Counted from the first letter of the stretch, positions 12,418 through 63,772 are shown. The stretch is DNA of 64,000 nt from an uncultured Actinomycetota bacterium (GCA_963848085.1 CAWKCE010000003.1:999300-1063299); one strand, 5' to 3'. The notes: generated by a model not told the origin, from the sequence alone. Made by a program: numbers and translations.

Positions 12418-12438
12418 CCGGGGCCGCTCCCCGCGGAG

Positions 12439-14805: not shown

Positions 14806-14950
14806 CTGACCAGACCAGCCCATCGGTCGGCTCGTTGGCCGCGCGGCGGTCGTCGGCGACGCCACGACTCGGTAGCTGGTGGCACCGTCAGGCGGCAGGG
14901 GATCCACTTGCCCCGTCGTAGGGTGGTGAAGGGCGAAACCGGAGGAGTCC

Positions 14951-48386: not shown

Positions 48387-48431
48387 CGCGGGCGCACCCT
48401 GCCAGGATCGACTGATGGCTCTGCCCCGCTG

Positions 48432-48461
48432 GGGCTCAAGAGGAGCGGTGCGCCCGCCGAA
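48432..48461 (+). promoter_or_regulatory. Sigma-28-like promoter motif, site 1: GGGCTCAAG-N15-GCCGAA
   Basis: Intergenic, 61 nt upstream of ATG 48522. Same bipartite motif and exact 15-nt spacer as five other sites in the locus. Confidence 0.55.
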
Positions 48462-48521
48462 GCACAGACGGTGAGGCGGCACCGGTGGCGGTGCGGCCCC
48501 GGTGCTGGTGAAGGGTGCCCC

Positions 48522-49259
48522 ATGTCCGATCGATACGCCGCCGTGAGCGACCAGGTCGACCACCGCTCGGCGCGCTTGGAGCGAGTCCTGACGGCTCTGC
48601 TCGCCCAGGCCCCGGAGCTGGAGGCTGCAGCCGTGGTCTCGTTCGACGGCCTCCCCATGGCCGCTGCCCTGCCGGAAGGCATGGACGAGGACCGGGTGGC
48701 TGCCATGAGCGCGGCCCTGCTGTCGCTCGGGGAGCGGGCCGCCCAGGGACTCGGCCGTGGCGAGCTGTCCCAGGTCTACGTGGAGGGCGAGAGCGGAACG
48801 GTGTTCCTCGTCTCGGCCGACGACGAGGCCGTTCTGGTTGCTGTCGGAGCTCGCGGGGCCAAAGTGGGGCTCCTGCTGTTCGAAGTGCGCCACGCTGCCG
48901 CAGCGGTGGGGGAGACCCTGCGCCGAGAGCCGGATGTCACCCCGACGTACGACGAGGCCCCGGTGGACGAGCCGGAGTACGTGACCGAGGCGGTGGACGA
49001 GCCTGCCCCGGTGGACGAGCCGGAGTACGTGACCGAGGCGGTGGACGAGCCGGCGACGGAGCGCGAGTACTTCGCCGACGTGGAGTTCGAGCCGCAGGCG
49101 GAGCACGAGGTCGAGCCTCCCAGCGACGACGACGAGCCGCGGCCGGTGGACTACGTGCTGGCCGGCGACGACGAGGGGTCCGGCTGGGACGACGAATACG
49201 CCGACTTCGGCTCGATGCGTCAGCCCTCACGGGTCGCCCAGCCGACAACCTGGTCCTGA
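48522..49259 (+). CDS. Roadblock/LC7-domain protein (MglB/CvnB-like) with long acidic C-terminal tail
   Basis: LERVLTALL..ELEAAAVVSFDGLPMAAAL..DRVAAMSAALLSLGERAA..VYVEGESGTVFLV..VLVAVG fits the Roadblock pattern. Start at ATG 48522, downstream of the motif. The track ORF begins at GTG 48471. Confidence 0.75.
   Translation: MSDRYAAVSDQVDHRSARLERVLTALLAQAPELEAAAVVSFDGLPMAAALPEGMDEDRVAAMSAALLSLGERAAQGLGRGELSQVYVEGESGTVFLVSADDEAVLVAVGARGAKVGLLLFEVRHAAAAVGETLRREPDVTPTYDEAPVDEPEYVTEAVDEPAPVDEPEYVTEAVDEPATEREYFADVEFEPQAEHEVEPPSDDDEPRPVDYVLAGDDEGSGWDDEYADFGSMRQPSRVAQPTTWS
48960..49055 (+). repeat. 48-nt in-frame tandem duplication encoding PVDEPEYVTEAVDEPA twice
   Basis: The two units are identical at 46 of 48 nt. 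The differences are only in the third positions of the last two codons. Confidence 0.9.
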
Positions 49260-49316
49260 CCCAGGCGGCCCGCCGCTGACCCTCATCCCTACCGACGTCG
49301 AAGGAGTCGAGAACCC

Positions 49317-50564
49317 GTGAAGCTCGAGGGCTCGCTCGACGCGTTCAGCCTCCAGGACGTCTTCCAGCTGCTGAGCCTGACCAAGAAGTCCGGTGGGCTG
49401 CACCTGGCCAACGGCCAGGCAGTGGGGGTGGTCTACTTCGACAACGGTGCCATCACGGGGTCGGTGTCGGATGCCTCGCAGCAGGCACTGGCCAGGCGGC
49501 TGATCGGGATGGGCGCCTGTGACGACGCGGCGCTGCGGCGCGCGGTCGAGCGGGCCTGTGTGGAGCCGGTGGGTGTCGCCCGGGCACTCGTGGAGTCTGG
49601 TGGGGCCGACGCCGACGTCGTTCGAGAGCACGCCCTGGACCAGACTGTCGACTCCGTGTTCGACCTGCTGCGCTGGCCGGAGGGGGACTTCTCCCTCGCA
49701 GTCGGTGAGCCCAACCCCGACGACGTCGGAATTGCGGTTCCGGCGGAGAAGGTGGTGGCCGAGGCCAACGCCCGACGCGAAGCCTGGGAGGCCGTGTCGC
49801 GAGTGATCCCGTCCCCGGACGTCGTCCTCGTCATGCCGGTCGTCATTGCCGACGAACCCGGGGTGGGCCGCGACGAGTGGGCGTTGCTGGCCCTGGTCGA
49901 TGGCCGTCGAACCGTCGGTGAGCTGGTCGAGGTCAGCGGGGCCGGGACCTTCGCTGTGGTCTCCAAGCTCGCCCAGATGGTTCAGCGGGGGCTCCTCTCC
50001 CTGGCCGACGACGACTCGACCGACCACGTCACGCTGGTCCACCGCCGCCACCTGCTACTCGCACCGCTGGAACCGGCGTCGGCAACGGGCTCTCCCCACG
50101 AGTCGGCGCCCGAGCCCCTGGTTCGGACTGGCCGGGATGCCGACGGAGGCGGCGCCGCACGGCAGTCGCTCGCTCCCCAGGCGGACCCGGCGCCTCGCTC
50201 CGAGCCGGCCGTGGCCGCGGCTACTTTGGCGATCCCGCTCGTCGGCGGCGCGCACGCGCCCCGGGAGGTTGTGCCCACGCGCCATGAGCCGTTCCTGCCC
50301 CGGCGATCGGTCTCCCACCCCGAATCGCCTCCGGTCGATGCACCCGCCGCGGTGCCCTCAGCGGACACCCGCCGGCACCCGCCCGCCCCGGCCATGCCCC
50401 CACCCGGAGTGCGGACGGGCGTCCCGGCCGGGTACCCGACGACGGCCACCGGCACCATGGGCGCCGCCGCTGCGGCACCGAACGCGGACCCGACGATCCA
50501 GCCCGACCCGAACCTCAACCGCAGCCTGTTGCTGCGGCTCATCGCCGGTGTGAGGGGACTCTGA
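49317..50564 (+). CDS. DUF4388 (PATAN-type) domain protein with Pro/Ala-rich C-terminal half
   Basis: The N-terminus MKLEGSLDAFSLQDVFQLLSLTKKSGGLHL..GVVYFDNGAI is the remembered DUF4388 signature. AAGGAG lies 10 nt before GTG 49317. Confidence 0.7.
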   Translation: MKLEGSLDAFSLQDVFQLLSLTKKSGGLHLANGQAVGVVYFDNGAITGSVSDASQQALARRLIGMGACDDAALRRAVERACVEPVGVARALVESGGADADVVREHALDQTVDSVFDLLRWPEGDFSLAVGEPNPDDVGIAVPAEKVVAEANARREAWEAVSRVIPSPDVVLVMPVVIADEPGVGRDEWALLALVDGRRTVGELVEVSGAGTFAVVSKLAQMVQRGLLSLADDDSTDHVTLVHRRHLLLAPLEPASATGSPHESAPEPLVRTGRDADGGGAARQSLAPQADPAPRSEPAVAAATLAIPLVGGAHAPREVVPTRHEPFLPRRSVSHPESPPVDAPAAVPSADTRRHPPAPAMPPPGVRTGVPAGYPTTATGTMGAAAAAPNADPTIQPDPNLNRSLLLRLIAGVRGL

Positions 50565-50565
50565 C

Positions 50566-51141
50566 ATGGCGGGCAGCAAGCGGCGCCGGCACGGCGGGCA
50601 GGCGGTGAAGGTGGTCATCACCGGGCCGTTCGCCGCCGGCAAGACCACGTTGATCCGCAGCATCAGCGAGATCACGGTGCTGTCCACGGAGCGGGGGATC
50701 ACCGACGAGACCCGGGCCCGCAAGAACGACACCACCGTGGCCATGGACTTCGGGCGCATCACCGTTGACCGTGACCTCGTCCTCTACCTGTTCGGGACGC
50801 CGGGGCAGGAGCGGTTCGACTTCATGTGGGAGATCCTTGGGGAGGGGATGCTCGGCTATGTCGTGCTGCTCGACGCCGACCGCCCCGACTCGTTGCAGGA
50901 GGCCAAGGGAATCCTGGACGCCTTCCGGCGCATGGCCCGCGTCCCGTTCGTCCTGGCACTGAACCGTTCGGACGGCATCGACGACGTCGAGGAGGCTCGG
51001 ATCCGACAGACCCTCGACGTCGACGGTTCGGTTGCGCTTGTCCCGTGCGACGCCACCGACAAGGAGTCGGTCAAGGCGGTCCTCCTGGCGCTGCTGTACA
51101 GCGTCCTCGACCAGGTGGAAGCCGCGCCGGCCGGGGTGTGA
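50566..51141 (+). CDS. MglA/CvnD-like small Ras-superfamily GTPase (ATP/GTP-binding protein)
   Basis: G1 GPFAAGKTT, G2 TTVAMDF, G3 LFGTPGQERF (TPGQ in place of DxxGQ, as in MglA TVPGQ), G4 LNRSD. The ATG is one base after the upstream stop. Confidence 0.8.
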   Translation: MAGSKRRRHGGQAVKVVITGPFAAGKTTLIRSISEITVLSTERGITDETRARKNDTTVAMDFGRITVDRDLVLYLFGTPGQERFDFMWEILGEGMLGYVVLLDADRPDSLQEAKGILDAFRRMARVPFVLALNRSDGIDDVEEARIRQTLDVDGSVALVPCDATDKESVKAVLLALLYSVLDQVEAAPAGV

Positions 51142-51166
51142 GCCCCGTCGCGCCGGCTGGACGGCC

Positions 51167-51448
51167 ATGACCCTGTTCCGACGGTCGTCCCGGGGGCGTC
51201 ACGCGGAGGGCCGGGCTGCCCGGCCGCCCACTCCCACGTTCCCCGAGGCGACGGCGACGGCACCGGTTCCCGAGCCGGTGAGCCGCGGCCTGGTCCGCAT
51301 CGTGTTCCGTGATGGCAGCGCCATGGCGCTCGATGCGCATGATCCACGCGCGGCCCCGTTCCGAGCCCTCGCAGACAGCATGTGGGCATCCCCCGCGTCA
51401 GCTGTCGGTGAGCCAGGCTCGGCGCGGGACGACCCCGGCGAGGATTGA
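51167..51448 (+). CDS. Small hypothetical protein (93 aa), last gene of the GTPase operon
   Basis: ATG 51167 is 25 nt after the GTPase stop. The ORF ends before the next promoter motif. No family recognised, and coding status is uncertain. Confidence 0.35.
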   Translation: MTLFRRSSRGRHAEGRAARPPTPTFPEATATAPVPEPVSRGLVRIVFRDGSAMALDAHDPRAAPFRALADSMWASPASAVGEPGSARDDPGED

Positions 51449-51465
51449 GCAGGCGAACCGCCGTC

Positions 51466-51496
51466 GGGCCTTCAGCCCCCGGCCAGGACGGCCGAT
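51466..51496 (+). promoter_or_regulatory. Sigma-28-like promoter motif, site 4: GGGCCTTCAG-N15-GCCGAT
   Basis: Intergenic, upstream of pilB. The -35-like half is degenerate, but the spacer is exactly 15 nt. Confidence 0.45.
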
Positions 51497-51581
51497 TGGG
51501 TCCTGAGGCGTCACGTACGCGGGCCCCCGCGCTCTCGTGTCGCCCGAGCTACCGCCTCCTACCAGTGGGAAGGACCGTCCG

Positions 51582-53261
51582 GTGAAGCAGCTCGGCGACA
51601 TCCTGTTGGACCAGGGACTGCTCACGCAGATTGAGCTGGATGCTGCCTACACCGAGCACCAGCGGGCGGGGAAGCCGCTGGGCCGTGTCCTCGTCGACCA
51701 GCAGGTGGTCACTCAGTCGCAGCTGATGGCCGCGCTGGCCGAGCAGATCGGCATGGAGTTCGTGGACCTGGGCGACTACCCCGTGGACGGAAGCCTGATC
51801 GCCCGCGTTCCGGGGGTGCTGTGTCGCAAGCACTCGGTGGTGCCGCTGCGGATCGAGAACGGCGTCCTGCTGTTGGCGATGGCAGACCCGGCGAACATCT
51901 TCGCCGTCGACGACGTGCGCACCACCCTGCGCGAGCAGGGCATGGTCGTCGACGTCAAGACGGCAGTGGCCACCAAGGCTGACGTGGTCGCGGCCATCGA
52001 CCGGTACTACCGGAACGACGACCAGATGGACGACCTCCAGACCGCCCTGGAGGCGGAGGACGAGGAAGAAGACCTGGCGAGCCTTCGCGAGGTCGTCGAG
52101 GACGCACCCATCGTCAAGTATGTGAACCTGCTGATCACCCAGGCGATCCAGGACCGCGCATCGGACATCCACCTGGAACCCGGGGAGTACGCACTCAACG
52201 TTCGGTACCGGATCGACGGTGTCCTGCACGACGTGATGACCTCGGGCAAGAACATCCAGGCGGCGGTGATCAGCCGGCTGAAGATCATGTCCGACATCAA
52301 CATCGCCGAGCGTCGCATCCCCCAGGACGGGCGCCTGTCGGTGACCCATCTCGGGAACAAGATTGACCTTCGCGTCGCCACGCTGCCGACGGTGTGGGGG
52401 GAGAAGGTCGTCATGCGTGTGCTCGACAACTCAACCGCACGGCTCGACCTGTCCGACCTCGGGTTCTCGGACCACAACTACCGGACATTCGAGGAGAGCT
52501 ACCGCAAGCCCTACGGGATGATGCTGGTCACCGGCCCCACCGGTTCCGGCAAGTCGACCACGCTGTACGCCACGCTGAACCAGATCGCCCGCCCCGAGGT
52601 GAACGTCATCACCGTCGAGGACCCGGTGGAGTACCGACTGCCCGGCGTCAACCAGGTCCAGGTCAACAACAAGGCCGGGCTGAGCTTCGCCGCGGCCCTG
52701 CGGTCGATTCTCCGCTGCGACCCGGACATCGTGCTTATCGGTGAGATCCGTGACCACGAGACGGCACAGATCGCCGTGGAGGCGGCGTTGACCGGTCACC
52801 TGGTGCTGTCGACGCTGCACACCAACGACGCGCCGTCGGCGGTGACTCGGCTCACCGAGATGGGGCTGGAGCCCTTCCTCGTCGGCTCGGCCCTCGACTG
52901 CGTCCTCGCACAGCGGTTGGCGCGGCGGTTGTGCACCAAGTGCCGAGAGCCGTACCAGCCGAGCCCGGAGTCCCTCGTCCAGGCCAAGTACACCTGGGAG
53001 GACGGGATGCCGGTGCCCACGCTGTACCGAGCCATCGGGTGCTCCGCCTGCTCGAAGACCGGATACAAGGGACGGCTCGCTCTGCACGAGGTCATGCCGG
53101 TCTCCGAGGAGATCGAGCGCCTGGCGGTCGAGCGGGCCTCGGCCACGGCGATTGGTGACGTTGCGCGCCAGCAGGGCATGTTGACGCTGCGCGACGACGG
53201 AATGCTGAAGGTCTCGCAGGGTGTCACCTCCATGGACGAGATCCTGCGCGTCGTCGTCTGA
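51582..53261 (+). CDS. pilB: Type IV pilus assembly ATPase PilB (GspE family)
   Basis: GSPII_E N-terminal domain, Walker A GPTGSGKSTT, VNVITVEDPVEY, Walker B IVLIGEIRD, and the tetracysteine CxxC..CxxC. Start at GTG 51582 (RBS GGGAAGGA), or GTG 51537. Confidence 0.9.
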   Translation: MKQLGDILLDQGLLTQIELDAAYTEHQRAGKPLGRVLVDQQVVTQSQLMAALAEQIGMEFVDLGDYPVDGSLIARVPGVLCRKHSVVPLRIENGVLLLAMADPANIFAVDDVRTTLREQGMVVDVKTAVATKADVVAAIDRYYRNDDQMDDLQTALEAEDEEEDLASLREVVEDAPIVKYVNLLITQAIQDRASDIHLEPGEYALNVRYRIDGVLHDVMTSGKNIQAAVISRLKIMSDINIAERRIPQDGRLSVTHLGNKIDLRVATLPTVWGEKVVMRVLDNSTARLDLSDLGFSDHNYRTFEESYRKPYGMMLVTGPTGSGKSTTLYATLNQIARPEVNVITVEDPVEYRLPGVNQVQVNNKAGLSFAAALRSILRCDPDIVLIGEIRDHETAQIAVEAALTGHLVLSTLHTNDAPSAVTRLTEMGLEPFLVGSALDCVLAQRLARRLCTKCREPYQPSPESLVQAKYTWEDGMPVPTLYRAIGCSACSKTGYKGRLALHEVMPVSEEIERLAVERASATAIGDVARQQGMLTLRDDGMLKVSQGVTSMDEILRVVV

Positions 53262-53277
53262 CTAGTTCGATCACCCT

Positions 53278-53307
53278 GGGCTTAAGGGGTGACCACCTTG
53301 CGCCGAT
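53278..53307 (+). promoter_or_regulatory. Sigma-28-like promoter motif, site 5: GGGCTTAAG-N15-GCCGAT
   Basis: Intergenic, 73 nt upstream of pilT GTG 53380. Confidence 0.55.
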
Positions 53308-53379
53308 GGCTCCGGGGAGACGTGCCCCCGCCGTGGGGGCACCGGACCGCCGCCTGCGGCGTATGAAGGAGGCTCGCTC

Positions 53380-54987
53380 GTGGAGACCTCGGGATTCAGT
53401 GGCGCGACGCCGGACCAGTCGGTGGACGACGTCTCGACCGACACCGACGCGGCTTCGGACGTGTTCACCCCGGCGCCAGCACCCTCCTTCGACCCCGGGT
53501 CTGCCCTGCTGGCCCCGGAGGAGCCGGAGACCGCAGGATCGTCCGGGCTCCCCATGTCCTTGACGATCGCCGCCGAAGAGGCAGCCACCGTCGACCTGCC
53601 GGTGGAGGAGCCCAGCCGCGGATCGACGTACGAGTCGTTCTACGACCCGCAGGAGGCAACGGCCGCACCGGACGTGACGGAGGGGGAGCCGGCCAGCCCG
53701 GACCCGATGGAGCAGTGGCGCGCTGAGGCTGCCCTGGACGCCGGGGCGCCCGCCGCGCCGGCCGACCAGGGAGCGGACGAGCTGGTTACCCAGCCGGCGC
53801 CACCAGCGGACGACGTTGCCCCCGAATCCGTCGACGAGGACGGTGGGGTAGCCCTCGCGGACTCCGAGGCAGACGAGGCGTCCTACAACCGGGTCAGCAC
53901 CGAGCCCGTCCTGGGCGGTGAGGACATCGTCCTGGTCGACCTGCTGCTCACCATGCTGGAGCGTGGGGCGTCCGACCTCCACATCACCGCAGGTGCCCGC
54001 CCGGCGATCCGGGTCGATGGAGAGCTCTCCCAGATGGACGAGTTCCCTGTGCTGACGCCGCCGGTCATCCAGCGCGTGATGTACGCGGCGATCACGCAGC
54101 GTCAGCGGGAGATCTTCGAAGAGGTCCTGGAGCTGGACTTCGCCTACTCGGTCCCGGGTCGGGCGCGATTCCGCGTCAACATGTACCGGCAACGGGATGC
54201 GATCGGTGCTGCGTTCCGCATCATCCCATTCGAGATCAAGCCCCTCGAGGACCTCGGGGTCCCCAGCACAGTGGCCAACTTCGCGATGCTGGCACGCGGT
54301 TTCGTGCTGGTGACCGGACCCACCGGATCCGGCAAGTCCACGACCCTCGCGTCATTGGTCGACCTGGCGAACCGCAACCGCCAGGACCACATCATGACCT
54401 GTGAGGACCCGATCGAGTTCCTCCACCGGCACCGGAGCTGCCTGGTCAACCAGCGCGAGGTGGGGGAGGACACGCACTCGTTCCAGAACGCGCTGAAGCA
54501 TGTGCTGCGGCAGGACCCCGACATCATCCTGGTCGGCGAGATGCGTGACCTGGAGACCATCTCGGTCGCCCTTACCGCGGCTGAGACCGGCCACCTCGTC
54601 TTCGCGACCCTGCACACGCAGGATGCGGCCCAGACCATCGACCGGGTCATCGACGTGTTCCCCCCTCACCAGCAGCAGCAGGTGAGGGCCCAGCTGGCGA
54701 CCGCGATCCAAGGGGTCGTCTGCCAGACACTCGCCAAGAGTGCGGACGGTCGAGGTCGGGTCGTCGCGTGTGAGGTGATGGTGGCCACACCAGCAATCCG
54801 GAACCTGATCCGTGAGGGCAAGACCCACCAGATCTACAGCGCCATGCAGGCCGGCGCGAAGTTCGGGATGCAGACGATGGACCAACACCTGGCGGACCTG
54901 GTGAACAAGGGCCGCATTACCCACGAGATGGGTATCGAGAAGTGCCACCACATCGAAGACTACAAACGCCTCACCGGGCGCGGCTGA
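53380..54987 (+). CDS. pilT: Twitching-motility retraction ATPase PilT with ~180-aa acidic N-terminal extension
   Basis: Core from about residue 181: ASDLHITAGARPAIRVDGEL, GPTGSGKSTT, ILVGEMRD, and the PilT-specific AIRNLIREGK. RBS GAAGGAGG lies 7 nt before GTG 53380. Confidence 0.9.
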   Translation: METSGFSGATPDQSVDDVSTDTDAASDVFTPAPAPSFDPGSALLAPEEPETAGSSGLPMSLTIAAEEAATVDLPVEEPSRGSTYESFYDPQEATAAPDVTEGEPASPDPMEQWRAEAALDAGAPAAPADQGADELVTQPAPPADDVAPESVDEDGGVALADSEADEASYNRVSTEPVLGGEDIVLVDLLLTMLERGASDLHITAGARPAIRVDGELSQMDEFPVLTPPVIQRVMYAAITQRQREIFEEVLELDFAYSVPGRARFRVNMYRQRDAIGAAFRIIPFEIKPLEDLGVPSTVANFAMLARGFVLVTGPTGSGKSTTLASLVDLANRNRQDHIMTCEDPIEFLHRHRSCLVNQREVGEDTHSFQNALKHVLRQDPDIILVGEMRDLETISVALTAAETGHLVFATLHTQDAAQTIDRVIDVFPPHQQQQVRAQLATAIQGVVCQTLAKSADGRGRVVACEVMVATPAIRNLIREGKTHQIYSAMQAGAKFGMQTMDQHLADLVNKGRITHEMGIEKCHHIEDYKRLTGRG

Positions 54988-55001
54988 GACAGGAGCGACC
55001 C

Positions 55002-56225
55002 ATGGCGACAACGACGACATACCAGTACTCGGTCCGCGACAAGGCGGGCAAGGTCGTTTCCGGAACCCTTGATGCGGACTCGCCGACGGCGGTGGCTGCG
55101 AAGCTGAAGCAGCTGGGCTACACCCCGGTCAGCATCGCCGAGCACAAGCCCGGAATGAAGCGCGAGCTCAAGGTGCCCGGCTTCGGCGGCAAGGTGAAGC
55201 TGAAGGACCTGGCCGTGATGTCTCGCCAGTTCGCGACCATGATTAACAGCGGGCTGTCGCTGCTCCGAGCCCTCAACATCCTCTCGGAGCAGACACCCAA
55301 CCCCAAGCTGGCCGAAGTCCTGCGCGAGGTGCGCAACGAGGTCGAGACCGGCAACGCGCTGTCAGCGGCGATGGGAAACTTCCCCGACGTCTTCCCGCCA
55401 CTGATGGTCAACATGATCAAGGCCGGAGAGGTTGGCGGGTTCCTGGACCAGGTGCTGCTGCAGATCGCGGCCAACTACGAGGCTGAAGTACGGCTGAAGG
55501 GCAAGGTCAAGTCGGCTATGACCTACCCGGTGGTCGTCTTCGTGATGGCGATCCTGGCCGTCGTCGGCATGCTCTTGTTCATCGTTCCGGTGTTCGACAA
55601 GATGTTCGACGGACTGGGCGCAGACCTACCGGCCCCCACCCAGATGCTGGTCAACCTGTCCAACCTGCTGAAGACGTTCTTCCCGGTTCTGATCGTCATG
55701 CTCGTCGTCGGATCCTTCGTCTGGCGGAAGGTCAAGCGCACCGACCGGGTGCGGAACGTGGTTGACCCGCTGAAGCTGAAGATCCCGGTCTTTGGACCGT
55801 TGTTCCAGAAGATCGCCCTCAGCCGGTTCACGCGTAACTTCGGAACCTTGCTGCACGCCGGTGTGCCGATCCTGCAGAGCCTGGACATCGTGGCGGACAC
55901 GTCAGGGAACGTGGTCGTCGCGCGTGCCGTCCGGGACGTCCAGGAGAGCGTGCGCAACGGCGAGTCGCTCACCGGACCCCTCGCGCAGCACGCAATCTTC
56001 CCGCCGATGGTCGTGCAGATGCTGGCCGTCGGGGAGGACACCGGTGCGCTCGACGCGATGCTGCACAAGATCAGCGAGTTCTACGACCAGGAGGTCGAGT
56101 CCACGACCGAGTCCCTGACGGCGCTCATCGAGCCGTTGATGATCGCGGTTCTTGGTGGCCTGGTCGGCAGCATGATCATCGCCTTGTACATGCCCATCTT
56201 CAAGGTCTTCGACCTCATCGGGTAG
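55002..56225 (+). CDS. pilC: Type IV pilus platform protein PilC (GspF family)
   Basis: Two GspF repeats (..FSRQFATMINSGLSLLRAL.. and ..FTRNFGTLLHAGVPILQSL..) and three TM segments. 407 aa. Confidence 0.9.
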   Translation: MATTTTYQYSVRDKAGKVVSGTLDADSPTAVAAKLKQLGYTPVSIAEHKPGMKRELKVPGFGGKVKLKDLAVMSRQFATMINSGLSLLRALNILSEQTPNPKLAEVLREVRNEVETGNALSAAMGNFPDVFPPLMVNMIKAGEVGGFLDQVLLQIAANYEAEVRLKGKVKSAMTYPVVVFVMAILAVVGMLLFIVPVFDKMFDGLGADLPAPTQMLVNLSNLLKTFFPVLIVMLVVGSFVWRKVKRTDRVRNVVDPLKLKIPVFGPLFQKIALSRFTRNFGTLLHAGVPILQSLDIVADTSGNVVVARAVRDVQESVRNGESLTGPLAQHAIFPPMVVQMLAVGEDTGALDAMLHKISEFYDQEVESTTESLTALIEPLMIAVLGGLVGSMIIALYMPIFKVFDLIG

Positions 56226-56267
56226 GCGGCTCGGCGAGTCCGGTTCGTGACCAATTCGCCCGGTCGA

Positions 56268-56297
56268 GGGCTCAAGTCCAGCGTCCCGCCAGTCGAA
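56268..56297 (+). promoter_or_regulatory. Sigma-28-like promoter motif, site 2: GGGCTCAAG-N15-GTCGAA
   Basis: Lies in the 251-nt pilC-pilA gap, about 180 nt upstream of the pilA ATG. Confidence 0.5.
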
Positions 56298-56476
56298 ACC
56301 TCCAGTGTCATAGAGCCAACCGGCCAGAACGGGCACACCCGTCGCGAGGCGGGGTCGCAAAGCCAGGGGACCCATGTGGTCGGCCTAGCTGCCTCGGTCG
56401 GCACTCCACCCGGAGCGCCGCAGAGGGCCAGAAGGACCGCTCGGCTCATCAACCTCATCCGGAGGAGAACAACAGC

Positions 56477-56896
56477 ATGATCGCTCGTATCCGCAAGGCC
56501 CAGGAGGAGCGCGAGGGTGGCTTCACCCTCATCGAGCTCCTGGTCGTTGTCATCATCATCGGTATCCTCGCCGCGATCGCCATCCCGGTGTTCCTGAACC
56601 AGCGTCAGAAGGCCGTCGACTCGTCGATGAAGGCCGACGCTCGCGCAGTGGCCAACGAGATGGAGACCGCGTTCACCGACACGCAGGTCTACCCAGTCAG
56701 CTTTGCCGGGGTCTCTGCTTCCGTCAAGCTGTCGCCCGGAAACGCGGCGACCGTTGTTCGGTCGACCATCGGGTCGTCCTACTGCGTGACCATCACCCGC
56801 ACCGCGGGGTCGCAGCCCGGCTCGCAGGCGAACTGGGTGTACGACAGCAACGACGGTGGCCTTCAGGGCCCCGGCGTGGCTTGCGTCGACAACTGA
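56477..56896 (+). CDS. pilA: Type IV major pilin (prepilin with class III signal peptide)
   Basis: MIARIRKAQEEREGG/FTLIELLVVVIIIGILAAIAIPVF: G-1, F+1, E+5 and a hydrophobic helix. 139 aa with two Cys in the C-terminal part. RBS GGAGGAG. Confidence 0.9.
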   Translation: MIARIRKAQEEREGGFTLIELLVVVIIIGILAAIAIPVFLNQRQKAVDSSMKADARAVANEMETAFTDTQVYPVSFAGVSASVKLSPGNAATVVRSTIGSSYCVTITRTAGSQPGSQANWVYDSNDGGLQGPGVACVDN

Positions 56897-56912
56897 TCGA
56901 CTGCTCAACCGT

Positions 56913-56944
56913 TTCGGGGTCGCACCTTCGGGTGCGGCCCCGAA
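56913..56944 (+). terminator. Intrinsic-terminator-like hairpin after pilA (14-bp stem, TTCG loop)
   Basis: ttcggggtcgcacc-ttcg-ggtgcggccccgaa, with one G-U pair. Starts 17 nt after the pilA stop. No U-tract. Confidence 0.6.
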
Positions 56945-56966
56945 CCACGTTCACCCGGAAGCACTG

Positions 56967-56992
56967 TCAAGGCCGACCGGCTCACTGCCGAT
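56967..56992 (+). promoter_or_regulatory. Sigma-28-like promoter motif, site 6: TCAAG-N15-GCCGAT
   Basis: Lies between the pilA terminator hairpin and the minor pilin operon, about 45 nt upstream of GTG 57037/57043. Confidence 0.5.
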
Positions 56993-57036
56993 GAAAGGTC
57001 TCGAGGGTCGTTCGGCCCTGCCTCATCGAAGGGGGA

Positions 57037-58590
57037 GTGGGCGTGCTCCAGCACTGGCGCAACCGGATCCGCCGGGACGACGCCGGCATCAGCCTGGTCG
57101 AGATGCTGGTGGCGCTCGTCGTCACCTCCATCGCCTTCACCGCTCTCGCCGCCGCCATCTTGACCGGTGTCCGCTCGGCGCAGACGGCGACCGTGGTGAC
57201 CGCCGGCAACCAGCTCGCGTCCGAGCAGGTGGAGCGGCTTCGTGCGATCGACTGGTCGCTGCTGGGGCACTACGCAGACGAGCCCGGCTGGGGCAGCGGG
57301 TACTACGGTGGCGAGAACCTGGTGATGGTCGCTGCGACGACGCCCAGCCCCCGCCCCGTTGAGGTCCCGTACCTGGCCGCGCAGACGGTCACGATCAAGA
57401 ACGTCGCCTACTCGGTCACGACCCGGGTCACCTGGGCGGGGTCCTCCGTCGGTACGCCGAACACGGGCGCCACGTACGCGAGCAAGCGGATCACCGTGAC
57501 GGTGACCTCCGACTTCCGTGGCCAGACCCGCACGAGCACCCAGACCGCTCTGCGGACGCCGAACGCCAAGGAGATGAAGCCACCCAGCGCCGCGGGGGCG
57601 ACCCCGATCAGCATCACCACGTCCAGCGTGAGCCCGAACCAGCCGCTCGGCCCGAACGGTGAGCTGACCCAAGAGCTCATCCTGCTGGCGTCCACGTCGG
57701 TCGTCGCGCAGGACGTGACCGCGACCTACACCCTGGCAACGGGAGCGACGGCAACGACCGCACTGGCCCCGGACGCCACCGCCAAGCTGTGGACGATCCG
57801 GCTACCGGTGGGCACCGGTCCGTTCACGCCTGGAACCGCCGTCTTCACGTACACGGCCACCCACGCTTCCGGGTCGACGACGACCGCGAGCGCGCAGGTC
57901 CAGTTCACCGCGTACAGCGGCTCGTTCACGCTCAACAACCCGAACGCCAGCACGACCTACAGCCAGCTGGCGGTCGACTACACGCTGGCCGCGCCGATCA
58001 CGGTGTCGGTCACGACGTCCGACCCGGCCACCGTGGTCACCGGGACCTACCCCTTGAGCAGCGGCTCCGACGGCACGCTGACCTTGACCGGCGGCCCCAC
58101 CAACTGGACCGGGTCCATCCCCATCGGGGCCGGACCCATCACGGCAGGCAACCTGACGATCACGCTGAGCGCGACCTCCGTCGGTGGGAGCACGGCGACG
58201 GCGACGGCGGCCGTGGTCCTCCAGGCGCCGTCGCTGGGGGCGATCGAGATCGTTGGGCTGACCGCCTCGCCGAACCTGTGCACCAAGCAGAGCGGCGGCT
58301 ACCCGACCTGGCGTGACTCGACCCTCACCGCCGAGGTGAAGAACGTCTCCGCCACGACCGGCACCGTGACGATCAAGCTGGGTGCGGACGCGGCGGTGAC
58401 CGCGACCGCCGTCGGCGCCATCGGAGGCTCCGGCGGGCAGCTGTTCCGGATCACCGTCCCGACCGGCCACGCGATCCCGACCGCACCGGTCACCGTGCAG
58501 GTGGTGGCGACGCGCACGGCCGACTCGGCGACGCAGAGCCGTGACTTCCCGGTCCCGGTGACGCGGAAGAACTCGGTGAACGCATGCTGA
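57037..58590 (+). CDS. Large (517 aa) prepilin-type minor pilin with three Thr/Ala-rich ~105-aa repeats
   Basis: RRDDAG/ISLVEMLVALVVTSIAF class III signal with E+5. The C-terminal 320 aa form three tandem repeats. Start at GTG 57037 or 57043. Confidence 0.8.
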   Translation: MGVLQHWRNRIRRDDAGISLVEMLVALVVTSIAFTALAAAILTGVRSAQTATVVTAGNQLASEQVERLRAIDWSLLGHYADEPGWGSGYYGGENLVMVAATTPSPRPVEVPYLAAQTVTIKNVAYSVTTRVTWAGSSVGTPNTGATYASKRITVTVTSDFRGQTRTSTQTALRTPNAKEMKPPSAAGATPISITTSSVSPNQPLGPNGELTQELILLASTSVVAQDVTATYTLATGATATTALAPDATAKLWTIRLPVGTGPFTPGTAVFTYTATHASGSTTTASAQVQFTAYSGSFTLNNPNASTTYSQLAVDYTLAAPITVSVTTSDPATVVTGTYPLSSGSDGTLTLTGGPTNWTGSIPIGAGPITAGNLTITLSATSVGGSTATATAAVVLQAPSLGAIEIVGLTASPNLCTKQSGGYPTWRDSTLTAEVKNVSATTGTVTIKLGADAAVTATAVGAIGGSGGQLFRITVPTGHAIPTAPVTVQVVATRTADSATQSRDFPVPVTRKNSVNAC

Positions 58591-59201
58591 ACAGACTCCG
58601 CAGGAGCCGCTCCGGCAGCCGTGACGCCGGGTACTCCCTAGTCGAGATGCTGGTGGTCGTGGTGATCCTCGGCGTGGTCAGTGCCGTGGTAAGCGCCGCG
58701 ATCATCAGCAGCCTCCGGGTGCAGCAGGTGACCGAGTCGAACGTGACCTCGATGGCCGGTGCGCGCACCGCCATCGAGCGGATGTCGCGTGACATCCGGA
58801 CCGCCAACCCGCTACGGACCGCCGAGGCGAACGTCATCAGCTTCGACATGTACTACGGGACCAGATGCGAGCGCCGCACCTACTCGGTGGTCGCGGGCTC
58901 GATCGTCCTCAGCCGGGCGCAGTTCGCTGCGGGTGTGCGGTGTGGCGCGCCCGGGGCGGTCCCCGGTGCGGCGACCACGAGCACGGTCATCGAGGACGTC
59001 ACGAACACGACTGCGGCGCCGCTGTTCCGGTACTACCGGTGGGACACCGCCACCAAGACCCGTGTCGAGTCGACCGCGCCGGTGACCGTCGGGCTGACGT
59101 CGGTCGACACCGTCCGGATCAACGCGCTCGTCTCGGCCCTGCGGCAGGGCGACGTCGGAGTCCAGGCCCTGGTCGACCTCAGAAACGTGGAGATCAAATG
59201 A
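58584..59201 (+). CDS. Prepilin-type minor pilin (PilW/GspJ-like size)
   Basis: SRDAG/YSLVEMLVVVVILGVVSAVV class III signal with E+5. Its ATG overlaps the upstream gene by 7 nt. Confidence 0.8.
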   Translation: MLNRLRRSRSGSRDAGYSLVEMLVVVVILGVVSAVVSAAIISSLRVQQVTESNVTSMAGARTAIERMSRDIRTANPLRTAEANVISFDMYYGTRCERRTYSVVAGSIVLSRAQFAAGVRCGAPGAVPGAATTSTVIEDVTNTTAAPLFRYYRWDTATKTRVESTAPVTVGLTSVDTVRINALVSALRQGDVGVQALVDLRNVEIK

Positions 59202-60364
59202 TGGCTTTCCGCAACCGCCTCCTGCGCTCGGGGAGGGACGACCGAGGGTCAATGCTCCTCGCGCTGTCCGGCGTCCTCGTGGTGACCGGGATCATGATGG
59301 CCTTCCTCGTGACGGTCCTCATCGCCCAGGACTCCACGCGGCACGACTACCGGTACACCAAGTCCATCCAGGGTGCGGACGCCGGCGTTCAGCAGGCGTA
59401 CTACCAGATCAACACGCTGCCGGCCGGGTCGACCAGCACCTCCCTGACGTCTGGTGGCACCGTCACGCTGGACGGCGTCGACTACTTCTGGACCGCAGCC
59501 CGTCCGGCCGCCGAGTCGCTCACCTGGACCGTGGAGTCCACGGGGACGACCACGGTCGGGACGCAGACGACCACGCGCACGGTGACGGCGACGATCGGCC
59601 AGAGCGCGCTGTTCAACATGGCGGCCTTCGCCGACTCCACGCTGAACTTCAACGGCAACAACCTCGCCACCTCCTACCCCGCTCCCGGCCAGGGGCAGAT
59701 CGGCACCAACGGGTCGATGACCCTCCTGGGGAACTCGACCTCGGTGGACGCGGTGGTCCTGTACGACTACGACGCGAACCCGGACCCCAGCCGGTGCACC
59801 GGGGCCGCCTGCAGCGCGCCGACGACCACGAACGGCAGCAAGCTGGACATCGCCGGCGCGGCCGCTACCGACGGGTTCATCCAGGCGCAGCTCGACGCCT
59901 GCAAGGCGGTCGCGCCGCTCACCGCGTTCGTCGGCACGACCATTGCTGCCCGGCCGGAGCCCTACTGCTTCACCTCCTTCTTCGCCGACACGCAGAACTT
60001 CACGGTCACGGGGCCAGGCACGGCACGCATCTTCGTCGAAGGTGGGGACGTCGTGCTCGGCAACAAGAACCACAGCGACGTGAACAACGACGTCCCCGGG
60101 ACACCGACGTCGGTGAAGCTGCAGATCTACACCACCGGCCAGACGGTCAGCATGTACAACCAGGGCGAGATCGCGGCCGCGGTGTACGCACCGAACGCCG
60201 CCTGCGGCGGTGTCACCTCGAACGCCGGCACGACCTTCTACGGGTCCATGATCTGCAAGACGATCGACAACGTCGGTGGCTGGACGTTCAAGTACGACAC
60301 GCGACTGTCCAGCATCGGCGACGGGATCTGGCGTTTGAAGGACTACTCGGAGCCCGGCGCCTGA
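59198..60364 (+). CDS. PilX-N-like pilus-associated protein (no Glu+5)
   Basis: DDRG/SMLLALSGVLVVTGIMMAFLV hydrophobic N-terminus followed by an A..AG.QQAYYQIN helix, as in the PilX N-terminal domain. ATGA overlap with the upstream gene. Confidence 0.6.
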   Translation: MMAFRNRLLRSGRDDRGSMLLALSGVLVVTGIMMAFLVTVLIAQDSTRHDYRYTKSIQGADAGVQQAYYQINTLPAGSTSTSLTSGGTVTLDGVDYFWTAARPAAESLTWTVESTGTTTVGTQTTTRTVTATIGQSALFNMAAFADSTLNFNGNNLATSYPAPGQGQIGTNGSMTLLGNSTSVDAVVLYDYDANPDPSRCTGAACSAPTTTNGSKLDIAGAAATDGFIQAQLDACKAVAPLTAFVGTTIAARPEPYCFTSFFADTQNFTVTGPGTARIFVEGGDVVLGNKNHSDVNNDVPGTPTSVKLQIYTTGQTVSMYNQGEIAAAVYAPNAACGGVTSNAGTTFYGSMICKTIDNVGGWTFKYDTRLSSIGDGIWRLKDYSEPGA

Positions 60365-60409
60365 GCCCTCCTGCGGGAGGACCTGGCGCGTGGGGTAGAA
60401 CTGCCGACC

Positions 60410-61189
60410 GTGGACACCCTCGTACTCGTCATGGTGGGCGTACTTGGGCTCGTTGTGGGCTCGTTCCTGAACGTCGTCATCCACCGGGTCCCGGCCGGCG
60501 AGTCTGTCGTTCATCCCCGCTCGAGGTGCCCGGGGTGCGGCACCGAGATTGCGGCGCGCGACAACGTCCCCGTCGTCTCCTGGCTGCTTCTTCGTGGGCG
60601 GTGCCGCAGCTGCGGTGAGCCGATCAGCGTGCGCTACCCGCTGGTCGAACTCGGAACTGCCGCGCTGTTCGTCCTGCTCACCGTCGAGATCGGCGTCGGC
60701 TGGGCGCTGCCGGCGTTTCTCTACCTGGGCGCGGTCGGAGTGGCATTGGCCGCCATCGACCTCGACACCCACCGGCTGCCGAACGCGCTCACGCTGCCGT
60801 CGTACGCAGTAGGCGGGCTGCTGCTGCTCCTCCCGGCGGTTGCGGACGGCTCGTGGGACGCCTACCTCAGGGCTTGGCTGGGAGCGGCTGCGTTGTTCGC
60901 CTTCTACCTGCTCCTGGTCGTGGTGTATCCGGCGGGCATGGGACTGGGCGACGTGAAGCTCGCGGGAGTCCTGGGGCTCTACCTGGGCTGGTTGGGCTGG
61001 GGAGCGCTCGTTGTGGGGGGCTTCCTGGGCTTCCTCCTGGGTGCCGTGGTCGGGGGCACGCTCATGGTCGTTCGACGGACCGGTCGCAAGTCGAAGATCC
61101 CCTTCGGACCGTTCATGCTGGCCGGAACGCTGCTCGCAGTGATCTGGGGGAGCTCCGTGTGGGACTGGTACCTCGGCCGTCTCGGCTGA
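60410..61189 (+). CDS. pilD: Prepilin peptidase / N-methyltransferase (A24 family)
   Basis: CPGCG..CRSCG zinc pairs. The two catalytic Asp contexts are AAIDLDTHRLPN and GMGLGDVKLAG. Eight TM segments. Confidence 0.9.
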   Translation: MDTLVLVMVGVLGLVVGSFLNVVIHRVPAGESVVHPRSRCPGCGTEIAARDNVPVVSWLLLRGRCRSCGEPISVRYPLVELGTAALFVLLTVEIGVGWALPAFLYLGAVGVALAAIDLDTHRLPNALTLPSYAVGGLLLLLPAVADGSWDAYLRAWLGAAALFAFYLLLVVVYPAGMGLGDVKLAGVLGLYLGWLGWGALVVGGFLGFLLGAVVGGTLMVVRRTGRKSKIPFGPFMLAGTLLAVIWGSSVWDWYLGRLG

Positions 61190-61211
61190 TCCAGACCCAA
61201 TTTCTCCCCTG

Positions 61212-61241
61212 GGGCTCAAGCAGCCCGCGATTCACGCCGAT
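61212..61241 (+). promoter_or_regulatory. Sigma-28-like promoter motif, site 3: GGGCTCAAG-N15-GCCGAT
   Basis: Intergenic, 71 nt upstream of pilM GTG 61312. Shares the extended CCCYTGGGGCTCAAG with site 1. Confidence 0.55.
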
Positions 61242-61311
61242 GTCCCCGCTGACATAGCCCGAACGGGCTCACCCACGTGGCCCAACGGGTTGCTCGGGAA
61301 GGGGAATCGAC

Positions 61312-62373
61312 GTGGCAGGACGAACCGCCATCGGTCTCGACATCGGGACATCGGGTGTGCGCGCCGCCGAACTTGTGTTCGGCAAGTCAGGCATCACCCT
61401 CGAGAAGTTCGGCCAGGTCGCGCTGCCCGCAGGCGCGGTCCGAGACGGCGAGGTCATCGACGTCGCCACTGTGGCCGAGGCGATCAAGCAGCTGTGGGCC
61501 CACACGAAGTTCAGCAGCAAGAAGGTCGTGGTCGGCGTCGCGAACCAGAAGGTCCTGGTCCGTGCAGTGTCGCTTCCCGCTGCCCCGCTGGACGAGATCA
61601 AAGAGACCCTCGCGTACCAGGTGACCGACCAGATTCCCATGGCCGTCGAGAACGCGCTGTTGGACTTCTACCCCCTCGACGAGGCCGAGGAGGGTGGGCG
61701 CCAGGTCGTGCGCGGCCTGCTCGTCGCGGCGGCTCGGGACATGGTCACCACCCAGCTGGCCGCTGTTCAGCAGGCCGGACTCACCCCGCACATGGTCGAC
61801 CTCACGGCGTTCGCCGTCCTCCGTTCGCTGGCGGACAACGACAGCCTGGGAATGGGCGCTCCGCTGGAGGCTCTGATCGACGTCGGGGCACGGGTGACCA
61901 ACATCGTGCTGCACCAAGGCGGGGTGCCTCGGTTCGTCCGCATCCTGCAGATGGGCGGACAGGACGTCACCGACGCGGTAGCCGACCGCACGGGCTCCTC
62001 CCAGGCTGAGGCCGAGGAGCTGAAGCGCGAGCTCGGGATGAGCGCGCACGGCGCTGATCCCGACCAGATGGCCGCCGGACGCGTGATGGAGGCCGCCGGC
62101 AAGGCGTTCGCCGAGCAGGTTCGCGGCTCGCTGGACTTCTACGCCGCCTCTCCGGGCGGCCAGCAGGTCGACCGCATCGTTCTCACCGGCGGCGGGTCAC
62201 GTCTCGGCGGTCTCGCCGAAGCCCTCCAGGAGGTGAACCGGGTGGAGGTCACCCGGGGACACGCCTTCTCGGACCTGACGCTGGGACGCACCGGGCTCAC
62301 CCCCGAGCAGGTGCAGTTCGTCGAGCCGGCCGCCTCCGTGCCGGTCGGCCTGGCTCTCGGAGGCGTGGCATGA
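61312..62373 (+). CDS. pilM: Type IV pilus assembly protein PilM (actin-like ATPase fold)
   Basis: IGLDIGTSGVRAAEL, GARVTNIVL and LTGGGSRLGGL motifs. 353 aa. Confidence 0.85.
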   Translation: MAGRTAIGLDIGTSGVRAAELVFGKSGITLEKFGQVALPAGAVRDGEVIDVATVAEAIKQLWAHTKFSSKKVVVGVANQKVLVRAVSLPAAPLDEIKETLAYQVTDQIPMAVENALLDFYPLDEAEEGGRQVVRGLLVAAARDMVTTQLAAVQQAGLTPHMVDLTAFAVLRSLADNDSLGMGAPLEALIDVGARVTNIVLHQGGVPRFVRILQMGGQDVTDAVADRTGSSQAEAEELKRELGMSAHGADPDQMAAGRVMEAAGKAFAEQVRGSLDFYAASPGGQQVDRIVLTGGGSRLGGLAEALQEVNRVEVTRGHAFSDLTLGRTGLTPEQVQFVEPAASVPVGLALGGVA

Positions 62374-63050
62374 CCACCTTGACCGTCGGGCGCGTCACCG
62401 AGCTGCCGCGGGTGAACCTGCTGCCGCCGGAGGTCGCCCAGGCATCCCAGTTCCGTCGCCTGCAGGTCATGCTGGGCGTGATCGTGCTGGGCGCGCTGGC
62501 AGCCATCGCGGCCTCCTACGTGTTCGTCAGCGGCCAGGTGACGTCGGCGCAGGCGGCGCTCGACGACGCCCAGGCGCAGAACGCGGCGCTGACGGCCGAG
62601 GCAGCGCAGTACGCCGACGTGCCGCGCGTCCAGGCCGAGCTCGCCAAGGCGCAGCTGGACCTCACCCGGGCGATGAGCCCGGAGGTTCGGTGGTCGTTCT
62701 ACCTGAACGACCTCAGCCTGACGATCCCGAACAACGTCCGGCTGACCAACATGGTCATCGTGCAGCCGGTGCCGACCAACCCCCTGGCCACCGACCTGCA
62801 GATCACCAGCCCGATGGGTACCCCAGGGATCGCCACGATCAACTTCGAGGGCAACGCGGCCAGCTACGACGCCGTCGCGTCCTGGCTGCGCTCCCTGGCC
62901 AAGCAGAAGGGCTACTCGGACCCGACGCTCACCACAGTGGCTGACGCGACCGTGTCCGGCCAGGTCGGCAAGGTCTACACGTTCTCGTCCTCGGTGACAG
63001 TCACCGACAAGGCGTACTCCGGTCGATACACCTCAACGGCGGGTGAGTGA
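62370..63050 (+). CDS. pilN: PilN-like pilus assembly protein
   Basis: LPRVNLLPPEV motif, a single TM, then a coiled-coil. ATGA overlap with pilM. Confidence 0.7.
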   Translation: MTTLTVGRVTELPRVNLLPPEVAQASQFRRLQVMLGVIVLGALAAIAASYVFVSGQVTSAQAALDDAQAQNAALTAEAAQYADVPRVQAELAKAQLDLTRAMSPEVRWSFYLNDLSLTIPNNVRLTNMVIVQPVPTNPLATDLQITSPMGTPGIATINFEGNAASYDAVASWLRSLAKQKGYSDPTLTTVADATVSGQVGKVYTFSSSVTVTDKAYSGRYTSTAGE

Positions 63051-63759: not shown

Positions 63760-63772
63760 GGGGGCTCCCACC

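Follow-up and report, generated by a model that had tools for sequence, protein, structure and literature searches.

Predicted sigma-28-type promoters in front of the six transcription units of a type IV pilus island from uncultured Actinomycetota

A type IV pilus island of an uncultured Actinomycetota bacterium carries the same bipartite motif in front of each of its six predicted transcription units. We consider these six sites to be promoters for RNA polymerase with a sigma factor of the sigma-28 family (FliA/WhiG-type, group 3) encoded elsewhere in the genome, with a probability of about 0.85. The island, about 15 kb in length, starts at 48.4 kb of a stretch of 64,000 nt, one strand, with 70% GC (GCA_963848085.1 CAWKCE010000003.1:999300-1063299; the whole stretch is hereafter called the window). 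The evidence comes from the orientation, spacing, and position of the motif in the window and in 80 related pilus loci, from its distance to the start codons of predicted leaderless genes, and from its agreement with published consensus sequences for actinobacterial WhiG. In addition, a class I riboswitch for cyclic di-GMP (c-di-GMP) is predicted in the leader of pilA, the gene for the major pilin.

Six motif sites at the heads of the pilus operons

A preliminary description of this DNA had listed six plus-strand sites, one before each transcription unit of the island, as sigma-28-type promoters. Exact search for the pattern TYMAG-N15-GYCGAW on both strands of the 64 kb gave exactly six matches, starting at 48436, 51471, 53282, 56272, 56967, and 61216. 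All are on the plus strand and intergenic, and they are the same six sites as listed before. Each sits in a gap that heads a run of tightly packed genes, beginning with the Roadblock gene, pilB, pilT, pilA, the minor pilin genes, and pilM, respectively. The -10 half, G(C/T)CGA(A/T), is present in six of six, and the -35 box is GGGC-TCAAG in three sites, TTAAG in one, TTCAG in one, and TCAAG without GGGC in one. The spacer of 15 nt described earlier holds between the TCAAG-type box and the hexamer at all six sites. When the motif is aligned to the textbook TAAA, however, the spacer is 16 rather than 15, the distance from TCAA to GCCGA being N16 throughout.

The number of matches was compared with 100 dinucleotide-preserving shuffles, in which the pattern occurred 0.40 times on average and twice at maximum. 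A weight matrix, built from the related loci only and then applied to the window with a threshold of 11 bits, gave 19.0-23.4 bits for five of the sites and 14.2 bits for the pilB site. The best matches elsewhere in the window reached at most 15.7 bits and were located in coding DNA, about 10 matches of at least 11 bits being expected at random. Outside the two boxes the six sites have no common sequence, with flanks and spacers unrelated, so that a duplicated repeat does not account for them. The 10 kb that follow the island, as present in a contig of a metagenome-assembled genome (MAG) with 99.6% identity over the island, contain no further motif site.

Directly 5' of the -35 box, GGGC was observed at five of the six sites (48432-48435, 53278-53281, 56268-56271, 61212-61215, and also 51466-51469). 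The 9-mer GGGCTCAAG, which the preliminary description had not noticed outside the sites, occurs four times in the window, three times within sites and once at 765-773 on the minus strand. This extra copy has no -10 half, falls below the 11-bit matrix threshold, and was rejected as a chance occurrence. Promoters 3, 4, and 6 are preceded by rare A/T patches (GACTAGTTCG, CCAATTCG, and CCCAATTTC at 53258-53270, 56250-56257, and 61193-61201), each some 12-25 nt 5' of the -35 box, and the nearest relatives retain ATT at the patch of pilM. These patches could serve as an UP-element-like contact.

Conservation of the motif in related pilus loci

Related pilus loci were collected by a PilB-based scan with one genome per species, giving 80 loci (L001-L080; 1.35 Mb in total) with PilB 68-78% identical; a near-identical MAG copy of the window was labelled L081. 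Almost all of the 80 relatives are uncultured Actinomycetota MAGs, with the labels Nanopelagicales, Sporichthyaceae, Acidothermaceae, Frankiales, Mycobacteriales, and Kineosporiaceae. Their intergenic DNA is not alignable to that of the window. The strict motif was found 164 times on the strand of the pil genes vs 14 times on the other strand, and nearly all of these sites lie directly upstream of orthologues of the same genes, with only a handful within aligned coding sequence.

The spacing is as rigid as the orientation. For TCAAG-Nx-GCCGAW in the relatives, N15 gave 123 matches on the gene strand vs 1 on the other, and N14 gave 20 vs 0; the remaining spacer lengths gave at most five gene-strand matches each, save for 13 at N17. 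The N17 class was rejected as promoters, its matches arising from a conserved coding motif of pilB, VKE.VEDAPIVK. The consensus from 159 sites of the relatives is (g)C-TCAAG-N15-GCCGAT-(g), and the spacer bases are without information. In 73% of these sites C precedes the T of the -35 box, with a weak preference for G before that C. The GGGC extension noted earlier is a property of this species as far as its GGG is concerned, the relatives keeping only the C and, weakly, the G.

Occurrence at gene junctions was counted with a slightly relaxed pattern and homology-based gene starts. These counts replaced a crude coding mask by third-position GC, which had marked 69 of the 164 sites as 'coding' because the starts of the longest open reading frames (ORFs) overshoot promoters. 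A site was found before the Roadblock gene in 35/37 relatives, before pilB in 49/76, before pilT in 59/80, where it directly follows the pilB stop, before pilA in 16/21, and before pilM in 27/30; sites are also present before minor-pilin ORFs with GFTLIE motifs. Before operon-internal genes the motif is nearly absent (PATAN 3/48, GTPase 1/42, pilC 1/67, pilD 2/37, pilN 0/6), and the reverse-strand control at the junctions gave 0-1. The operon map predicted from the window, and with it the earlier claim that the motif defines the operon structure, is reproduced in these independent genomes. Variants of the boxes follow the same positions: TTCAG, as in the pilB site of the window, recurs before pilB in six relatives (L018, L020, L021, L024, L039, and L045), TAAAG appears as the -35 box of the pilA promoter in L002, L003, L004, L006, L010, and L028, and weaker pilA promoters of the relatives, found by eye outside the pattern, retain CGA.

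These counts bear on the possibility that the motif recurs by chance or composition, or as a by-product of repeated DNA, without any function. GC-rich hexamers such as GCCGAT are common in a genome of 70% GC, and a spurious spacer class does arise, as seen for N17. Nevertheless, the excess over the shuffles, the unrelated flanks and spacers, and a position kept among genomes that otherwise cannot be aligned in their intergenic DNA leave this explanation effectively refuted, with a negligible probability.

In the relatives, a recurrent box similar to CCG(T/A)(T/A)CGGGTGA precedes the -35 box of pilA by about 35-45 nt; in the window it is at 56232-56252. In some loci it lies within a perfect hairpin, as in L007 (CGTTCGGC...GCCGAACG) and L006. 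It may be the terminator of pilT-pilC or the site of a regulator.

Distance from the motif to the predicted transcription start

In 15 of 166 sites, an ORF of 100 amino acids or more has its start codon exactly 9 nt past the hexamer, compared with 1-7 at neighbouring offsets. From this position the corresponding mRNAs are predicted to be leaderless, which would place +1 at 10 nt after the hexamer. At the position predicted as +1, purines make up 82% and C only 7%, against the background of 70% GC. In the window the leaderless case is the Roadblock gene, whose GTG at 48471 is exactly 9 nt past the hexamer of promoter 1; in the relatives, such cases include Wzy_C-type genes resembling O-antigen ligases and a Wzx-like flippase.

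The same geometry is known from a solved structure. In the open complex of Pseudomonas aeruginosa sigma-28 on fliC, the -10 element is (-15)GCCGATAA(-8), the -35 element is (-36)TCTAAAG(-30), and the flipped base is A-11 (PMC12784957); GCCGAT followed by 9 nt to the predicted +1 gives an identical arrangement. By analogy with the solved sigma-28 complexes, sigma domain 4 would read C-T(C/T)AAG at about -37 to -31, and domain 2/3 would read GCCGA(T/A) at -15 to -10 with the A of CGA flipped at -11. Transcription of the six units would then start at the positions given in Table 1.

The Wzy_C genes behind the promoter are located at 7102-8538 and 8589-10037 of L054, 8175-10004 of L005, and 8042-9979 of L076, and the Wzx-like flippase gene at 345-1820 of L011. 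They occur in relatives that lack the GTPase module or alongside that module, and are probably genes for pilin glycosylation. From the predicted +1 on, the transcripts of pilA and pilM begin alike, with G(T/A)CAT(A/C)G (GTCATAG at 56307-56313 and GACATAG at 61251-61257). This sequence recurs at the pilA and pilM junctions of many relatives, not at the other promoters, and is followed at pilM by a 5' hairpin, AGCCCGAACGGGCT.

Could the boxes instead be the site of an activator or repressor, with the real promoters elsewhere in the gaps? Such a factor might account for the longer GGGC extension shared by four sites, and its contacts could include the G(T/A)CAT(A/C)G that follows the sites of pilA and pilM at a distance of about 10 nt. 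An operator, however, cannot explain the fixed 9 nt to leaderless start codons, and no sigma-70-like promoter was found in 48000-64000. The two halves are, moreover, neither palindromic nor direct repeats, and the orientation bias (164 vs 14) is strong. Two short, asymmetric boxes bound to one orientation at a rigid distance are the signature of a sigma factor, not of a dimeric regulator, and a transcription-factor site is very improbable.

The sigma factor reading the motif

Two consensus sequences have been described for actinobacteria, T(A/C)AA-N16-GCCGATAA for WhiG2 and CTCA-N16-17-GCCGAACT for WhiG1/FliA (PMC12871210), and both of them describe CTCAAG-N15-GCCGA(T/A). Among the confirmed actinobacterial targets, CGA is invariant and the last three bases of the -10 element are highly variable; Denis et al. 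omitted the latter from their query (PMC12871210). The bipartite CGA motif, the rigid spacer, the orientation, the conservation at junctions, and the geometry to the predicted +1 altogether support the assignment to sigma-28 made in the preliminary description.

Several observations weigh against this assignment. The full textbook -10 octamer GCCGATAA is not matched: its ATAA tail is not conserved, and GCCGA(T/A) is followed by G in 61% of the sites and then by an uninformative base. The spacer is one base longer than that of the classical TAAA-N15. The matrix score of the pilB site is low (14.2 bits), and 27 of 76 relatives have no recognisable site at that junction. The identity of the sigma factor, like the transcript starts themselves, is a prediction. 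Finally, Pfam search of about 55 ORFs detected only housekeeping and pilus genes, with no gene for a sigma or anti-sigma factor in the 64-kb window. Escherichia coli FliA (the query being identical to PDB 6PMI) gave nothing by tblastn at E <= 1e-3 in the window or within 10 kb on either side of pilB in the 80 relatives, and Streptomyces venezuelae WhiG (query from the 6PFV alignment) gave nothing at E <= 1 in the same regions or in extra contigs. As had been stated in the preliminary description, the factor is not encoded in the window; from the lack of a FliA or WhiG match there and in the flanks of pilB in the relatives, its gene is predicted to be unlinked to the island. Indirect support for the assignment comes from the broad distribution described for WhiG homologues in the phylum and from the WhiG-specific anti-sigma factor RsiG, which has been recorded in Acidothermus cellulolyticus (two copies), Cryptosporangium, and Kineococcus; families of these genera, Acidothermaceae and Kineosporiaceae, occur as labels of related MAGs.

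The same points leave room for another alternative sigma factor of similar specificity, either of the extracytoplasmic function (ECF) type (group 4) or a different member of group 3. With no sigma gene tied to the motif, the sequence by itself is compatible with this view, as are the departure of the -10 tail from GCCGATAA and the extra 1 bp of the spacer; many ECF promoters have a CG-containing -10 element and a spacer of 16-17 nt. ECF sigma factors are usually encoded beside their targets together with an anti-sigma factor, however, and Pfam revealed neither in the window, the flanks of the relatives having been searched with FliA and WhiG only, which are blind to ECF genes. The TAAAG box of some relatives and a predicted distance from -10 to +1 equal to that of the sigma-28 structures also speak against another sigma, as does the fit, base for base and including the invariant CGA, to both published WhiG consensuses (PMC12871210). 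We regard another sigma factor as unlikely.

If the six sites are promoters of the sigma-28 family, the whole island would form one regulon of six units. Unit 1, leaderless, would include the Roadblock, PATAN, and GTPase genes and a small ORF; unit 2 pilB; unit 3 pilT-pilC; unit 4 pilA; unit 5 the minor pilin genes, the DUF7305 gene, and pilD; and unit 6 pilMNO with one further gene.

A predicted c-di-GMP-I riboswitch in the pilA leader

The leader of 170 nt between promoter 4 and the ATG of pilA contains a predicted aptamer of the c-di-GMP-I (GEMM-I) type. The Rfam model RF01051 matched at full length at 56322-56396 with 44.8 bits (gathering threshold 35; E 1.6e-5), and the GGC variant model gave 49.3 bits, below its threshold of 59. 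Rfam search of the other five leaders gave nothing at E <= 1. A covariance model of our own, built from ten leaders, matched 34 of 82 sources, namely 32 of the 80 related loci, the window, and the MAG copy L081, always on the plus strand and between pilC and pilA; two copies were found in L029 and L051.

Covariation in the alignment supports the fold. Double changes were counted in 41 cells vs 9.7 in shuffles, none of 500 shuffles being as high. Eight pairs had double changes, and 90% of the cells were paired vs 28-45% when the partners were slid. The consensus fold by RNAalifold recovered both adjacent hairpins and, within the leader, the aptamer only. The loop of the first hairpin is of GNRA type (GCGA, GCAA, GUAA, GUGA, or GAGA). 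Each riboswitch-bearing leader inspected has a variant of the sigma-28-type promoter upstream, including those with the textbook TAAAG as -35 box.

From reading of the alignment, the aptamer of the window, with G before the GC(A/C)ACC box and with CGCAAAGCC, appears to be of the canonical c-di-GMP type; the ligand contacts are presumably the bases G20, A47, and C92 in the numbering of Vc2. In L025 (about 14740) and L054 (about 14760), both Acidothermaceae, A is present in place of G at the position equivalent to G20 (alignment A1, column 21). In Geobacter GEMM-Ib, the change of G20 to A shifts specificity towards 3'3'-cyclic GMP-AMP (3'3'-cGAMP). A long-range helix that encloses the aptamer can be drawn between GAGCC at the 5' end of the pilA transcript (56313-56317) and GGCUC (56445-56449), some 30 nt ahead of the AUG; the helix shows covariation, being GAACC/GGUUC in L030 and L019 (alignment A3, columns 14-18 and 172-176). 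As to the direction of the switch, ON or OFF, thermodynamic folding of 20 leaders, once free and once with the aptamer enforced, left the accessibility of the Shine-Dalgarno sequence unchanged in 19.

The riboswitch would constitute a second checkpoint for pilA. With a sigma-28-type promoter ahead of a leader that carries a c-di-GMP-I riboswitch, the output of pilin should depend on both the availability of the sigma factor and c-di-GMP. The MshEN domain of PilB may provide a third input of c-di-GMP. At PilB residues about 16-75 (51582-51760), a tandem motif of the form LG..LL..GLL....L...(L/Y)..Q is found in this domain as KQLGDILLDQGLLTQIELDAAYTEHQ and PLGRVLVDQQVVTQSQLMAALAEQ, which we take to resemble the c-di-GMP-binding motif of MshE-type ATPases.

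We tentatively propose, as a possibility well short of even odds, that c-di-GMP gates the pili at up to three levels: a WhiG2-type sigma controlled by RsiG and acting on all six units, the riboswitch of pilA, and the MshEN domain of PilB. Were this so, pilA would be subject to c-di-GMP at two successive steps, making a feed-forward circuit. The same sigma would also co-express a polarity module of MglA/MglB-like type (GTPase, Roadblock, and PATAN) and, in the relatives, the leaderless Wzy_C genes, and a directed motility of the twitching type would be implied for Actinomycetota. In the literature searched, we found no description of a sigma/anti-sigma switch and a riboswitch that read the same messenger on one gene.

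Gene organization of the island and the window

Genes of the window were identified by Pfam on about 55 ORFs, by reading frames of high third-position GC, and by public gene calls (Table 1). The initial 48 kb carry housekeeping genes (thrS, pdxST, ruvC, ruvB, yajC-secDF, relA, hisS, aspS, alaS, ruvX, mltG, and aroE). In the NCBI MAG GCA_032127035.1, the contig with 99.6% identity over the island continues just past the window end with one more gene, of 207 amino acids, and then aroC, aroK, aroB, aroQ, efp, and nusB. With aroE on the 5' side in the window and aroC on the 3' side in this contig, the whole pilus island is an insertion between the two genes.

Table 1. Predicted promoters, riboswitch, and genes of the type IV pilus island
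Feature	Position	Strand	Basis	Predicted +1
Promoter 1 (Roadblock unit): GGGC-TCAAG (-35, 48436-48440), 15-nt spacer, GCCGAA (-10, 48456-48461)	48432..48461	+	21.8 bits	48471
Roadblock/LC7 (MglB-like) gene, predicted leaderless	48471..49259	+	Pfam Robl_LC7, E 3.5e-18; high third-position GC frame; public gene calls	
PATAN/DUF4388-domain protein, unit 1 gene 2	49317..50564	+	Pfam DUF4388, E 1.5e-19	
Small Ras/MglA-like GTPase, unit 1 gene 3	50566..51141	+	Pfam ATP_bind_1, Ras	
Conserved 93-aa ORF between GTPase gene and pilB promoter	51167..51448	+	tblastn, same place in at least 11 relatives	
Promoter 2 (pilB): GGGCC-TTCAG, 15-nt spacer, GCCGAT	51466..51496	+	14.2 bits, weakest	51506
pilB, extension ATPase with N-terminal MshEN domain	51537..53261	+	Pfam T2SSE, E 6e-139; MshEN	
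Promoter 3 (pilT-pilC): GGGC-TTAAG, 15-nt spacer, GCCGAT	53278..53307	+	21.9 bits	53317
pilT	53380-54987	+	Pfam T2SSE	
pilC, ATG start	55002-56225	+	Pfam T2SSF	
Promoter 4 (pilA): GGGC-TCAAG, 15-nt spacer, GTCGAA	56268..56297	+	19.9 bits	56307
c-di-GMP-I (GEMM-I) riboswitch aptamer, pilA leader	56316..56410	+	Rfam RF01051; clan alignment; covariance model	
pilA, major pilin	56477..56896	+	Pfam N_methyl	
Promoter 5 (minor pilins, pilD): TCAAG without GGGC, 15-nt spacer, GCCGAT	56967..56992	+	19.0 bits	~57002
Two minor pilins	57037-58590, 58584-59201	+	Pfam N_methyl; public gene calls	
DUF7305 protein	59198-60364	+	Pfam DUF7305; public gene calls	
pilD, prepilin peptidase	60410-61189	+	Pfam A24_N_bact, Peptidase_A24; public gene calls	
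Promoter 6 (pilM): GGGC-TCAAG, 15-nt spacer, GCCGAT	61212..61241	+	23.4 bits, matrix maximum, strongest	61251
pilM, pilN, pilO	61312..63759	+	Pfam PilM_2, PilN, PilO	

Gene starts differ from the public annotation in two cases, the Roadblock gene being placed there at 48522 (48471 here) and pilB at 51582 (51537 here). The ORF of 93 amino acids before the pilB promoter matched no Pfam family, and the public annotation of the MAG has no gene at this place; its matches in the relatives have the common motif V.L.F.DGS...L...DPR...F, and it is probably the fourth gene of unit 1. The Roadblock/LC7-PATAN-small GTPase module just 5' of pilB is syntenic in about half of the 80 relatives (about 6700-9700), behind the same type of promoter. 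With a gap of 14 nt, pilT and pilC make a single unit (53380..56225). The N-terminus of PilA, M(L/I)ARIRK...GFTLIELLVV, is kept in the relatives. In MAG GCA_032127035.1, a change of CAG to TAG in pilT (L081, about 11079; region of 54871 in the window) removes the last 38 residues, pilT of the window being intact; the change is due either to strain variation or to an error of assembly. Upstream of the island, three tRNA genes are clustered on the minus strand at 10163-10422 and one lies on the plus strand at 14729-14802, and the 3.3 kb between them (11603-14929) hold no ORF that passes the third-position-GC filter.

Comparison with known systems

Control of pilus clusters by WhiG/FliA has already been published in actinobacteria. 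Given the precedents of Rubrobacter and Actinoplanes and the predictions for other families, the present finding is therefore not new in kind, and it is less novel than the preliminary description had assumed. It extends the published rule to a large uncultured lineage, mostly of environmental metagenome bins, with comparative support from 80 genomes. It also provides an operon map with predicted transcript starts at base precision, the predicted leaderless genes fixing the geometry from -10 to +1. Having both a sigma-28-type promoter and a c-di-GMP-I riboswitch, the pilin gene is probably controlled by the second messenger at two points, and the presence of the Roadblock/PATAN/small-GTPase module in the same regulon suggests that the polarity of pili may be controlled in this monoderm. 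Current understanding is not overturned; what is gained is a useful, well supported annotation and the proposal of one new circuit.

Three WhiG promoters with mapped starts are located in the pilus cluster of R. radiotolerans, and two are predicted in R. xylanophilus; pilus expression in Rubrobacter is linked to c-di-GMP, and WhiG acts there with RsiG and c-di-GMP (Schumacher et al. 2021, PMC8325347). Here too, an actinobacterial pilus cluster is predicted to have several internal promoters of the sigma-28 type with the sigma encoded elsewhere. In contrast to the three and two units of the Rubrobacter species, respectively, six units are found here, with TCAAG instead of TAAA as -35 box and a spacer 1 bp longer. 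The regulon here includes the Roadblock/PATAN/GTPase module, with no gene for a diguanylate cyclase or phosphodiesterase nearby, and its pilA has a c-di-GMP-I riboswitch, which is not mentioned for Rubrobacter in PMC8325347 or PMC12871210.

In Actinoplanes missouriensis, sigma factors of the FliA family (WhiG-like) transcribe flagellar genes and the zoospore pilus genes (Hashiguchi et al. 2020; Kimura et al. 2019; both as cited in PMC12871210 and PMC8325347). The WhiG1/FliA consensus from this line of work, CTCA-N16-17-GCCGAACT, is close to the present motif, CTCA-N17-GCCGA being contained in CTCAAG-N15-GCCGA(T/A) of the window. As represented in those citing papers, Actinoplanes is flagellated and has three FliA paralogues and no RsiG. 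The 2026 preprint by Denis et al. predicted WhiG sites in the pilus clusters of Cellulomonadaceae, Cryptosporangiaceae, Sanguibacteraceae, Rubrobacteraceae, and Jonesiaceae (PMC12871210). Its search logic and its conclusion of WhiG sites inside pilus clusters are the same as ours, but the labels of the present lineage (Nanopelagicales, Sporichthyaceae, Acidothermaceae, and Mycobacteriales) are not among the families named, and no riboswitch is mentioned there.

With the class 3 flagellar promoters of E. coli, Salmonella, and Pseudomonas (TAAA-N15-GCCGATAA), the sites share the GCCGA core, the C-T-x-A-A-G form of the -35 box, and, with +1 as predicted here, the distance from -10 to +1 (PMC12784957). 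They differ from these promoters in the second base of the -35 box, which is C or T instead of A, in the additional 1 bp of the spacer, in the missing AA tail, and in their targets, which are pilus genes, not genes for flagella or chemotaxis. The element of pilA1 in Clostridioides difficile is a riboswitch of class II and an ON switch. The element described here differs from it in class, being of class I, in its occurrence in Actinomycetota, and in its position downstream of a sigma-28-type promoter. What the two have in common, as far as the work of Bordeleau et al. (2015) is cited in PMC6916266, is a c-di-GMP riboswitch that a monoderm bacterium carries in the leader of its major type IV pilin gene.

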